Source: Escherichia coli (GTDB lineage: Bacteria > Pseudomonadota > Gammaproteobacteria > Enterobacterales > Enterobacteriaceae). Taken from it: a DNA stretch of 64,000 nucleotides. Below the pieces are notes generated by a model. That model was not told the DNA's origin and ran no database searches. It was given only the letters and a program-made list of their open reading frames with translations. The stretch is taken from assembly GCF_029227855.1 (NCBI RefSeq), contig NZ_CP074356.1; one strand, given 5' to 3'. Shown in pieces: positions 8,310 to 25,756 of the stretch (its first letter is position 1; each line of letters begins with the position of its first letter). Both the position numbers and the translations under genes were made by a program.

Positions 8310-8747
<438 letters not shown>

Positions 8748-8771
8748 GTCATTAACCTTTTTAATTGGCGA

Positions 8772-8948
8772 TTAACTCAAACCGAGTTGCTTCAGGATTG
8801 CTTTACGCAATGGTTCTTTTATCTCATCACTGGGGTGACGCGGCATGACACTGCGTCGCCCTTGAAACCTGAGTTTCAAATGGTTGCTGCCATTCGCTAC
8901 ATCGACGCCCTGAGATTCGAGCCAACGTCTGAACTCGCTTTGTTTCAC
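8772..8948 (-). CDS. hicA: Type II toxin HicA (58 aa, GTG start), mRNA interferase
   Basis: Hand translation of the minus strand gives VKQSEFRRWLESQGVDVANGSNHLKLRFQGRRSVMPRHPSDEIKEPLRKAILKQLGLS; below the ORF-track length cut-off. Confidence 0.8.
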   Translation of the reverse strand: MKQSEFRRWLESQGVDVANGSNHLKLRFQGRRSVMPRHPSDEIKEPLRKAILKQLGLS

Positions 8949-12153: not shown

Positions 12154-13326
12154 ATGCGTCTGTTTTCTATTCCTCCGCCCACGCTACTTGCGGGGTTTCT
12201 GGCGGTATTAATTGGCTACGCCAGTTCAGCGGCAATAATCTGGCAAGCAGCGATTGTCGCCGGAGCCACCACTGCACAAATCTCTGGCTGGATGACGGCG
12301 CTGGGGTTGGCAATGGGCGTCAGTACGCTGGCTCTGACATTATGGTATCGCGTACCTGTTCTCACCGCATGGTCAACGCCTGGCGCGGCTTTGTTGGTCA
12401 CCGGATTACAGGGACTAACACTTAACGAAGCCATCGGCGTTTTTATTGTCACCAACGCGTTAATAGTCCTCTGCGGCATAACGGGACTCTTTGCTCGTCT
12501 GATGCGCATTATTCCGCACTCGCTTGCGGCGGCAATGCTTGCCGGGATTTTATTACGCTTTGGTTTACAGGCGTTTGCCAGTCTGGATGGTCAATCTACG
12601 TTGTGTGGAAGTATGTTGCTGGCATGGCTGGCAGCCAAGGCCGTTGCGCCGCGCTATGCGGTAATTGCCGCGATGATTATTGGGATCGTCATCGTTATCG
12701 CGCAAGGTGACGTTGTCACAAATGATGTTGTCTTTAAACCCGTTCTCCCCACTTATATTACCCCTGATTTTGCGTTTGCTCACAGCCTGAGCGTTGCACT
12801 CCCCCTTTTTCTGGTGACGATGGCATCGCAAAACGCACCGGGTATCGCAGCAATGAAAGCCGCCGGATATTCGGCTCCTGTTTCGCCATTAATTGTATTT
12901 ACTGGATTACTGGCACTGGTTTTTTCCCCTTTCGGCGTTTATTCCGTCGGTATTGCGGCAATCACCGCGGCTATTTGCCAAAGCCCGGAAGCGCATCCGG
13001 ATAAAGATCAACGTTGGCTGGCCGCTGCCGTTGCAGGCATTTTCTATTTGCTCGCAGGTCTGTTTGGTAGTGCCATTACCGGGATGATGGCTGCCCTGCC
13101 CGTAAGTTGGATCCAGATGCTGGCAGGTCTGGCGCTGTTGAGTACCATTGGCGGCAGTTTGTATCAGGCGCTGCATAATGAGCGTGAGCGCGACGCGGCG
13201 GTGGTGGCATTTCTGGTAACGGCAAGTGGATTGACGCTGTTCGGGATTGGTTCTGCGTTTTGGGGATTAATTGCCGGAGGCGTTTGTTACGTGGTGTTGA
13301 ATTTAATCGCTAACAGAAACCGATAA
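12154..13326 (+). CDS. ydcO: BenE-family inner membrane transporter YdcO (~390 aa)
   Basis: Polytopic membrane ORF; ATG at 12154 preceded by GAGGTG; the longer ORF from 12031 overlaps sutR and is taken as an artefactual extension. Confidence 0.8.
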   Translation: MRLFSIPPPTLLAGFLAVLIGYASSAAIIWQAAIVAGATTAQISGWMTALGLAMGVSTLALTLWYRVPVLTAWSTPGAALLVTGLQGLTLNEAIGVFIVTNALIVLCGITGLFARLMRIIPHSLAAAMLAGILLRFGLQAFASLDGQSTLCGSMLLAWLAAKAVAPRYAVIAAMIIGIVIVIAQGDVVTNDVVFKPVLPTYITPDFAFAHSLSVALPLFLVTMASQNAPGIAAMKAAGYSAPVSPLIVFTGLLALVFSPFGVYSVGIAAITAAICQSPEAHPDKDQRWLAAAVAGIFYLLAGLFGSAITGMMAALPVSWIQMLAGLALLSTIGGSLYQALHNERERDAAVVAFLVTASGLTLFGIGSAFWGLIAGGVCYVVLNLIANRNR

Positions 13327-13332
13327 TAAAAA

Positions 13333-13352
13333 GCGCCATCTAACGATGGCGC
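13333..13352 (-). terminator. Intrinsic terminator of ydcL (hairpin gcgccatc/gatggcgc followed by a T5 run on the minus strand)
   Basis: Seen directly; lies between the convergent stops of ydcO and ydcL. Confidence 0.45.
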
Positions 13353-13360
13353 GTCTGGAA

Positions 13361-14029
13361 CTACTTTTTGTTAACGTCAAACATGGTGGCATCGGTCGCC
13401 ATGTCATCAATAACTTGTTTAATATTTTCGAAAGCCATTGGCGTACTTTCGTTATTCAGGTCTTTACCTTCGCCCTGACGAACGACTTTGATAACCGGTT
13501 TATTAGTCGCTGCATCAATCAGCTCACCTTCAAAATAGAGGCGAGTATCCATGGTACGGTGGCCTGTAGCCATTTGCGTCCCCGCAACCACTAATGCAAC
13601 AGGAACCACTTCATAGAATTGCAGCCCTTCTTTGCTGGTATCTACACCGGTAATGGCCCCACGGAAAATCAGACTATGCGGCCCAGCGGTGGTAACCAGT
13701 GGTTTACGCTGCGCTATCGCTTCTTTCATTTCGGTGTTGGTATAGTTCAAAATTTTATCCAGAACTTTCTGCCCTACCTGGGTAGAAGGTTTCGGTACCG
13801 GATAATAAGTGATTGGGTTCCAGACGATGCTGTCATATTTGCTTTGATCAAAACTTGGGTCTACCCAACGTAAAACAGGTTTACCTGTTGCCGAGGTTGT
13901 TTCTTTTAAATCAGAGTAATTGTTTAAAAAACCAGAATATTTATCTGGCTGGGTGATTTTAGAGGCACAACCAGACAGAGCCAACAAGCCGCATAAAGCT
14001 GCAACTTTCGCAAATGATGTGGTACGCAT
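13361..14029 (-). CDS. ydcL: Lipoprotein YdcL (222 aa)
   Basis: Lipobox LALSGC after a signal peptide; length as in K-12. Confidence 0.85.
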   Translation of the reverse strand: MRTTSFAKVAALCGLLALSGCASKITQPDKYSGFLNNYSDLKETTSATGKPVLRWVDPSFDQSKYDSIVWNPITYYPVPKPSTQVGQKVLDKILNYTNTEMKEAIAQRKPLVTTAGPHSLIFRGAITGVDTSKEGLQFYEVVPVALVVAGTQMATGHRTMDTRLYFEGELIDAATNKPVIKVVRQGEGKDLNNESTPMAFENIKQVIDDMATDATMFDVNKK

Positions 14030-17549: not shown

Positions 17550-17580
17550 CTTATCTCCAGTCACTCCATGCAGTTGTTAA

Positions 17581-18289
17581 TAAATATCCTCCGGCATAGC
17601 CGGAGGTTTTTCAAATGCGCCTATAAGGCTCTCTTACCAGCCGCGCCCTAACAGGCGCACACGATCTGACATTTGCATCCAACTTCGTTACTTACGGCCC
17701 GTAAACGGGCTGCCCGGATAGGGAATCGATAACTGCTCTCCCATTTTATCCTCTTCAAGCTGGTGCTTTGTGTAATCCTGTATCTTCGCCGTGTTCTTAC
17801 CCACTGTATCGACGTAGTACCCTCTGCACCAGAACTCCCTGTTCCTGTATTTGAATTTCAAATCACCAAACTGCTCGTAAAGCATCAGACTGCTTTTCCC
17901 TTTCAGATATCCCATAAACCCGGATACGCTCATTTTAGGCGGGATCTCCACAAGCATATGGATATGATCTGCACAGCATTCAGCTTCCAGAATCCGTACG
18001 CTTTTCCACTCACACAGCTTTCTCAAAATACTGCCTATTGCTCTACGCTTCTCTCTGTAGAACACCTGTCTTCGGTATTTTGGCGCAAAAACTATGTGAT
18101 ATTTACAGTTCCATCGGGTGTGCGCTAAGCTCTTTTCGTTCCCCATTGGGACCCCCTTTTGATTTCTTGTTTGACACTTGCAGTTGCCAGACCGCAAGGT
18201 GTTTTAACAAATCAAAAGGGGTTTTAATAACAGGCTCAAAGCTGAAAGCTTTCCGGAACCCCCAGCCTAGCTGGGGGTTTTCTGTGCAC
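17581..18289 (-). mobile_element. IS200-family insertion sequence (IS200/IS605 family), copy 1, ~709 bp
   Basis: Single Y1 (HUH) transposase gene; subterminal hairpins (cctccggc ata gccggagg at 17588..17606; aacccccagc cta gctgggggtt at 18257..18279); a stem-loop sequesters the tnpA RBS; boundaries set by comparison with copy 2 (ambiguous by about 2 nt at one end and a 6-nt A run at the other). Confidence 0.85.
17688..18146 (-). CDS. tnpA: IS200 TnpA, Y1 HUH transposase (152 aa from ATG 18146)
   Basis: HuH motif HIHMLVEIP and putative catalytic Tyr in ...IQDYTKHQ...; AGGGGG RBS 6 nt upstream of the ATG. Confidence 0.9.
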   Translation of the reverse strand: MGNEKSLAHTRWNCKYHIVFAPKYRRQVFYREKRRAIGSILRKLCEWKSVRILEAECCADHIHMLVEIPPKMSVSGFMGYLKGKSSLMLYEQFGDLKFKYRNREFWCRGYYVDTVGKNTAKIQDYTKHQLEEDKMGEQLSIPYPGSPFTGRK

Positions 18290-18312
18290 AAAAAAGCCGC
18301 CTGGCTGGCGGC
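18290..18312 (-). terminator. Intrinsic terminator of ydcH (gccgcc/ggcggc hairpin plus T6 on the minus strand); the T-tract directly abuts the IS200 end
   Basis: Seen directly. Confidence 0.5.
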
Positions 18313-24795: not shown

Positions 24796-25021
24796 CGACC
24801 AAAAACCTCTTTGCGTCACATTTTTACAACAATTATGGCAGAGAAGAATAATGCCATTGGAATGAAGAGAGTAACGAATGATTAAACTGGCTAAACCGAA
24901 TGACGAAAAATTCTGGAAAACAGCACGCAATTTCGTGAAGTGATTATTTTCGTCCCTAAGGAAACCTCATAGGATGCCTGCGGGTGCCTGAGACTTTCTG
25001 TTTTCAGGCTAACCGGGAATC

Positions 25022-25087
25022 AGAAAGACGAAGGCCCCGACCGATATTTCTATCAACCGAGGCCAACGAATGAACCAAGCAATTCAG

Positions 25088-25100
<13 letters not shown>
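25022..25100 (-). ncRNA. sokB: SokB antisense RNA of the hokB type I toxin-antitoxin locus (approximate extent)
   Basis: Inferred from position antisense to the mokB/hokB leader, with a candidate hairpin plus U-rich tail on the minus strand; boundaries not determined. Confidence 0.3.
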
Positions 25101-25277
<177 letters not shown>

Positions 25278-25692: not shown

Positions 25693-25756
25693 CTTCCGAT
25701 GTAGACCCGTATTCTTCGCCTGTACCACGGGTCGGTTTTAGTACAGGCGTTTTCTT
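25693..25756 (+). ncRNA. rydC: Hfq-dependent small RNA RydC (64 nt, pseudoknot)
   Basis: cttccgatgtagacccgtattcttcgcctgtaccacgggtcggttttagtacaggcgttttctt matches the RydC sequence as I recall it; located just 3' of cybB. Confidence 0.75.

Follow-up and report, generated by a model that had tools for sequence, protein, structure and literature searches.

Between the convergent genes ydcO and ydcL, the Escherichia coli chromosome studied here has almost nothing where K-12 has an insertion sequence, which raises the questions of whether this junction was never occupied or has lost its element, and of whether it is a hotspot for elements of the IS200/IS605 family. In K-12 MG1655 the annotated order is ydcL (b1431), IS609 (mobile_genetic_element 1503161-1504908) and ydcO (b1433). 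The stretch that we analysed, referred to below as the window, is 64 kb (64,000 nucleotides) long. A preliminary description of it, made from the letters alone, had placed an IS609-type insertion at this position in K-12 and had proposed, from the IS200 copies nearby, a recurrent hotspot near hairpins. Here we compare the junction with K-12, with complete E. coli genomes and with other Escherichia lineages.

The window holds the unoccupied counterpart of the K-12 IS609 locus

The window and E. coli strain JNEC-KY178 are collinear and differ by 5 SNPs in 50 kb; the genes around the junction are rlhA, sutR (ydcN), ydcO (+), ydcL (-), tehB, tehA and ydcK. According to the ORF list and a reading of the sequence, positions 13327-13360 form a 34-bp spacer that lies between the ydcO stop codon TAA (13324-13326, plus strand) and the ydcL stop codon TAG (13361-13363, minus strand). 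Features of the locus and of the two IS200C copies are collected in Table 1. Elsewhere in the window, hicAB lies at 8310-8948; the type I toxin-antitoxin locus hokB/sokB and the sRNA RydC give full-length Rfam matches at 24982-25133, 25128-25277 and 25693-25756; and ynbD (34995-36302) is frameshifted, a pseudogene, in the annotation of the near-identical JNEC-KY178.

Table 1. Positions of genes, insertion points, motifs and elements in the window; slashes mark insertion points.
Feature	Position	Strand	Basis
ydcO, BenE-family transporter CDS	12154..13326	+	ORF list; RefSeq annotation of JNEC-KY178; Pfam BenE, E = 1e-160
Predicted InsQ/TnpB guide target	13306..13325	-	K-12 right-end flank compared with window; inferred
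IS200C insertion point of strain 98190	between 13324 and 13325 (ccgaT/AATAAA...)		IS200C junctions, conserved ends; 1 nt left of IS609 point
IS609 insertion point of K-12	between 13325 and 13326 (TA/A, ydcO stop)		base-by-base junction comparison
5'-TTTAT-3', IS609 target / transposon-adjacent motif, end of ydcL T-tail	13326..13330	-	left-end flanks of four IS609 sites
Hairpin GCGCCATC-taac-GATGGCGC	13333-13352	terminator on -	terminator scan, folding z-scores
ydcL, DUF3313 lipoprotein CDS	13361..14029	-	ORF list; RefSeq annotation of JNEC-KY178; Pfam DUF3313, E = 7e-63
IS200C copy 1, 711 bp, tnpA 17688-18146	17579..18289	-	RefSeq-annotated IS200C; Rfam STnc490, 145 bits; Pfam Y1_Tnp
IS200C copy 2, 711 bp, tnpA 43232-43690	43123..43833	-	RefSeq-annotated IS200C; Rfam STnc490, 146 bits

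The K-12 element is 1748 bp long, belongs to the IS200/IS605 family with an IS605-like layout, and contains the tnpA pseudogene yncK together with insQ (b1432), which encodes TnpB. Since insQ reads toward ydcO, the right end of the element faces ydcO and its left end faces ydcL. Its junctions read ccgata/TTGACATCC...1748 bp...GCGCACCGG/ataaaaagcgcc, and the window reads ccgata/ataaaaagcgcc; removal of the annotated 1748 bp from K-12 restores the window sequence exactly, without target duplication and at an unambiguous position, the one given by the annotated IS609 ends and by the split of the BLAST query at base 526/527. The site in the window corresponds exactly to the K-12 locus without its element, with TTTAT next to the point where the left end lies in K-12. 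The insertion also alters the end of ydcO, which reads ...NRNR-TAA in the window but ...NRNRY-TGA in K-12, where the right end of IS609 brings a new stop (tat tga) and adds one C-terminal Tyr. Searches with IS609 DNA (blastn) and with InsQ protein (tblastn) gave no similarity, remnants included, anywhere in the 64-kb window.

The MG1655 annotation of b1431-b1433 and the junction read together bear out the placement of an IS609-type insertion there in K-12, and the alignment to K-12 excludes a location of insQ elsewhere, as the element maps to the ydcO/ydcL site. The placement needs one adjustment: an empty site matching the K-12 insertion is present as described, but the insertion point falls within the ydcO stop codon, 2 bp to the left of the 13327-13360 interval given in the preliminary description. 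The lack of IS609 between ydcO and ydcL in the window strain is a correct, ordinary and already documented strain difference; IS609 (insQ, b1432) between these genes is annotated in K-12 and is routine in screens for mobile elements in E. coli.

The spacer contains a predicted one-way terminator

The spacer hairpin begins 8 nt past the ydcL stop codon and, read on the minus strand, comprises an 8-bp stem with 6 GC pairs, a 4-nt GTTA loop and the tail TTTTTATTAT. It folds more stably than shuffled sequence, with z = -3.6 on the plus strand and z = -3.2 on the minus strand, and the consensus terminator scan called it on the minus strand only. Because the hairpin is canonical in that direction alone, it is predicted to be the intrinsic (Rho-independent) terminator of ydcL, with the sequence features of such a terminator on the minus strand. 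A bidirectional terminator was considered and rejected, as the plus strand has an A-run before the stem and no U-tract after it. Thus the hairpin is like other Rho-independent terminators between convergent genes in having a GC-rich stem, a short loop and a T-tail directly past the ydcL stop, but its canonical form in one direction only sets it apart from the simple bidirectional definition. A search of the spacer against Rfam matched no curated RNA family. Four other Escherichia lineages keep the hairpin, with variation in its loop. In our best explanation of the locus, the ydcL terminator is the sole functional element of the spacer, and the ORF ends and terminator scan agree with the preliminary statement that only a 34-bp terminator-containing spacer separates the two genes.

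IS609 follows a sequence rule

On the top strand of IS609, which is the minus strand of the window, the left end comes after 5'-...GATGGCGC TTTTTAT-3', that is, 3' of TTTAT. The complement ATAAA (window orientation) adjoins the left end at all four independent IS609 sites examined, and the partial probe matches (1-55) agree. Two of these sites, at ydcL and beside gltX, adjoin a terminator hairpin; the other two lie within coding sequence, in a DUF3251 gene and in a TetR-like gene, without an adjacent hairpin. As half of the sites are intragenic and hairpin-free, TTTAT alone is enough for IS609: the element obeys this sequence rule with or without a hairpin, and terminator tails merely tend to spell TTTAT. 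At the gltX site of O157:H7 strain Z1615 (L136 1-2555), where IS609 lies beside the gltX terminator, insQ is truncated by an ISEc8 insertion. A literature search returned no specific paper on the target specificity of IS609.

In each of the eight 8-kb bins, GC skew on the plus strand of the window is negative, and the minus strand, which bears TTTAT and is the top strand of both IS609 and IS200C, is therefore the lagging-strand template. According to Ton-Hoang et al. (2010), the top strand of IS200/IS605 elements reportedly lies on that template. Use of the lagging-strand template is a property of the IS200/IS605 family (PMC5027513), and TTTAT itself is the experimentally defined transposon-adjacent motif (TAM) of TnpA and TnpB of ISGst2 (PMC10055086).

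IS200C left ends adjoin terminator hairpins

The IS200 copies mentioned in the preliminary description are indeed present, as two IS200C elements that are 99-100% identical to RefSeq-annotated IS200C (Pfam Y1_Tnp, E = 1e-36). IS200 elements encode only a Y1 transposase and carry the art200/STnc490 antisense RNA (PMC4513863); both window copies are typical in this respect, each having a Y1_Tnp protein of 152 aa, a terminator hairpin at the left end and an STnc490 match. The left end of copy 1 adjoins T6 and the ydcH terminator hairpin (18296-18312), at a site of which K-12 has the empty version, and that of copy 2 adjoins T6 and a hairpin downstream of paaY. Copy 1 lies in the spacer that separates the ydcH terminator from the rimL start and measures only 62 bp in K-12; the element's own left-end terminator is now upstream of rimL and might affect rimL expression.

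Whereas the window has no IS200C within 13327-13360, strain 98190 (L003 3525-4242) carries a 711-bp IS200C in the ydcO/ydcL spacer, and so do 97 further genomes. With the ends of the element defined from the two window copies and from metagenomic copies as AATAAATATCC...GTGCAC (window orientation), this insertion point, like that of IS609, lies inside the ydcO stop codon. The left-end flank of the 98190-type insertion reads aaaaaagcgcc, compared with aataaaaagcgcc, and is 2 nt shorter than in any genome with an empty site. A variant starting spacer, ccgataaaaaagcgcc, was considered for the IS200C lineage and rejected, as no genome in the collection has that sequence empty. Its sole "100%" match is strain HH45 (L138 1550-1600), in which the IS609 position reads 'ttgacatcctccacgccctggct' and then about 25 consecutive C, apparently a poly-C assembly artefact that collapses IS609 and replaces most of it.

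A scan of public metagenome contigs for IS200C left ends (loci L015-L134) yielded 81 distinct flanks. A hairpin of at least 7 bp begins within 12 nt of the left end at 73 of these 81 sites (90%); the corresponding shares are 2% for 45-mers drawn at random from the window, 6.5% for 45-mers starting with AAAAA and 6.7% for right-end flanks. All 81 left-end flanks start with AA (sense strand ...TT/GTGCAC), and the conserved AATAAA precedes the right-end flank at 34 of 34 sites. In 26 of the 81, a non-A base separates AA from an A-run, as it does in the native ydcL tail, TTTTTATT. The two elements thus differ in their landing rules: a hairpin plus T-run (...TT/) for IS200C, TTTAT for IS609. The association of IS200C with terminators is not new, since a preprint (10.1101/2025.07.22.666184) reports that sequences resembling terminators are enriched upstream of insertion sequences, most strongly for IS200/IS605; its general statement was all that a literature search gave on the targeting of terminators by IS200. 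The hairpin pattern of IS200C could reflect either target choice or the survival of harmless intergenic insertions.

Three states of the site and their polarity

With 100-bp junction probes, 5426 complete E. coli genomes were sorted by the state of the site: the empty junction is intact in 2047, the junction of the IS609 left end with ydcL is found in 3268, and that of the IS200C left end with ydcL in 98. These three states account for 5413 of the 5416 genomes carrying the locus. The empty allele of the window is a minority allele (38%) yet very common, and the IS609 allele is present in about 60% of E. coli genomes. O157:H7 genomes carry IS609 elsewhere and have an empty ydcO/ydcL site; we take K-12 to belong to phylogroup A and O157:H7 to phylogroup E.

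Outgroup loci were located with a degenerate pattern for the YdcL C-terminus. In four of them, E. whittamii, Escherichia sp. E1V33, SCPM-O-B-8794 and E69, the site is empty and ydcO and ydcL are separated by the hairpin spacer only; SCPM-O-B-8794 and E69 are divergent genomes labelled E. coli and are 86-91% identical. These four empty non-coli Escherichia lineages have no TTTAT at the site and read taatcagaagcgcc or similar. A neighbour-joining tree built on the ydcO 3' flank (795 nt) groups the eight sampled alleles with IS609 into one clade and leaves outside it all seven that lack the element, namely six empty alleles, that of the window among them, and one with IS200C. The closest allele to the window on this tree is the IS200C-bearing 98190, which is 100% identical to it on the ydcL side over 978 nt. 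A tree of the ydcL-side flank does not cleanly separate occupied from empty alleles.

The IS609 copies themselves combine a decayed transposase gene with a preserved tnpB. In all eight sampled copies at ydcO/ydcL (L001 6162-7909 and L139-L145) tnpA is a pseudogene, with lesions of at least three different kinds (GVSGR*, LLIN*, ELV* and a frameshift), and insQ is an intact 402-codon ORF in the same eight, with a mean pairwise dN/dS of about 0.37. A solo remnant resembling IS609, about 46 bp long and with its right-end hairpin fused to the left-end tip, is found in Escherichia sp. MOD1-EC7003 (L014 1-330). Its left-end junction beside the ydcL terminator is exactly that of IS609; ydcO has lost its last ~29 bp, and the sequence upstream is unrelated. 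The remnant stems either from a hit of its own or from an insertion that is much older.

A predicted InsQ target in the empty allele

The omega-RNA of a TnpB takes its guide from the DNA adjoining the right end of its element (PMC8612924; PMC10055086), and the predicted guide of K-12 IS609 should accordingly be its right-end flank, TATCGGTTTCTGTCAGCGAT. In the window, TTTAT is followed by TATCGGTTTCTGTTAGCGAT (13325 down to 13306), which matches this flank at 19 of 20 positions, with the mismatch at guide position 14. Given the TAM and this guide match, we hypothesize that the empty allele of the window would be a substrate of InsQ, a protein with the Pfam domains OrfB_IS605 and TNB. The arrangement is similar to the ISGst2 donor joint of Meers et al. 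(PMC10055086), in which the TAM TTTAT likewise adjoins right-end-flank sequence matched by the omega-RNA guide; it differs in that cleavage or homing by InsQ is putative here, the window allele has its one mismatch and the 64 kb contain no InsQ. When the IS609 right end was searched against the curated families of Rfam, the only matches were sub-threshold chance ones, to RAGATH-18 and HgcC, and a literature search found no specific paper on insQ as a studied TnpB.

Discussion

Taken together, the data very probably describe the native ydcO/ydcL spacer of a strain that never acquired IS609 at this locus. The ydcL T-tail (TTTTTAT on the ydcL-sense strand, the lagging-strand template) happens to spell the pentanucleotide that IS609 needs at its left end. 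In a common ancestor of much of the species, a single-strand circle of IS609 may have been pasted 3' of TTTAT, presumably by peel-and-paste, splitting the ydcO stop codon, for which the right end would have supplied the new stop that lengthens K-12 YdcO by one Tyr. The copy would then have been inherited, with tnpA decaying independently in different lineages and insQ (TnpB) staying intact; in a separate lineage, IS200C would have landed 1 nt away.

The polarity in this account, with the empty state ancestral and the occupied state derived, is one that we infer, and it has to be weighed against a history in which IS609 was once present in the window lineage and a precise TnpA-mediated excision restored the donor joint. 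Such an event would leave the junction as it is, for the IS200/IS605 family excises without a scar (PMC10055086). The occupied allele is moreover that of the majority (3268 of 5426 genomes), the window allele is on the ydcL side as near to occupied alleles as it is to some empty ones, and the remnant in the cryptic-clade genome MOD1-EC7003 hints at an old insertion that could predate E. coli proper and have been lost several times. However, four outgroup lineages are empty, and on the ydcO flank the occupied alleles form a single clade from which the window is excluded. In addition, tnpA is dead in all eight sampled copies at the site, the window has no IS609 sequence to supply TnpA, and InsQ, where intact, should work against loss. 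We therefore consider excision very unlikely. The window most likely represents the ancestral, never-occupied state, and the simplest reading of IS609 occupancy, judged from the sequences compared, is a single old insertion followed by independent decay of tnpA and retention of TnpB.

A different explanation concerns not the history of the window but the choice of the site, namely that the ydcL hairpin, extruded on the single-stranded lagging-strand template, recruits Y1 transposases and makes the spacer, or the wider interval, a structure-driven hotspot for IS200/IS605 elements. Two family members 1 nt apart and, in the separate lineage of MOD1-EC7003, an IS609-like remnant at this junction are what this would produce, and both the excess of hairpins at IS200C left ends over all three comparison sets and the enrichment of terminator-like sequences reported in the preprint point the same way. 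Against it, IS609 is intragenic and without an adjacent hairpin at two of its four sites; only two or three events are seen among 5416 genomes; at least 80 other terminators are used by IS200C, and that of ydcL is not singled out among them; the two IS200C copies in 64 kb amount to a mild, post-hoc enrichment; and intergenic terminator tails tolerate insertions, so that survivorship could give the same pattern. As an account of this locus, the structural hotspot thus seems to us rather doubtful. Since IS200C uses so many other terminators, its preference applies to terminator tails in general and is not peculiar to the ydcO/ydcL interval.

The hotspot proposed in the preliminary description accordingly survives in part. 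Its "near hairpins" holds strongly for IS200C, including both window copies, but not for IS609, which follows TTTAT. Its "recurrent" is true insofar as IS609 (3268 genomes) and IS200C (98 genomes) have landed 1 nt apart and MOD1-EC7003 retains a remnant, but this comes down to two or three events in the history of the species, and a locus-specific hotspot is weakly supported.

A broader proposal would combine a ydcL T-tail that acts as a shared landing pad, through Y1 recognition of hairpin plus T-run, with natural homing by InsQ at ydcO/ydcL. For the former, structure-guided target choice may operate on the hairpin and T-run in the single-stranded lagging-strand template, which 90% of the 81 IS200C sites fit; for the latter, an intact InsQ under purifying selection, together with its omega-RNA, may cut the empty allele when the two alleles meet. 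That both parts hold jointly we regard as unlikely.

By itself the absence of IS609 here matters little and fits the known biology of the IS200/IS605 family and existing annotation. The locus does provide a quantified natural example of an IS605-type element that uses a terminator T-tail as its TTTAT target, of two family members inserted 1 nt apart, and of a TnpA that decays beside an intact TnpB. In addition, the empty allele of the window is a suitable substrate for asking whether E. coli InsQ drives the retention or homing of IS609 as an RNA-guided nuclease. If it does, InsQ homing would help to explain how an IS609 with a dead transposase comes to be present in about 60% of E. coli genomes.
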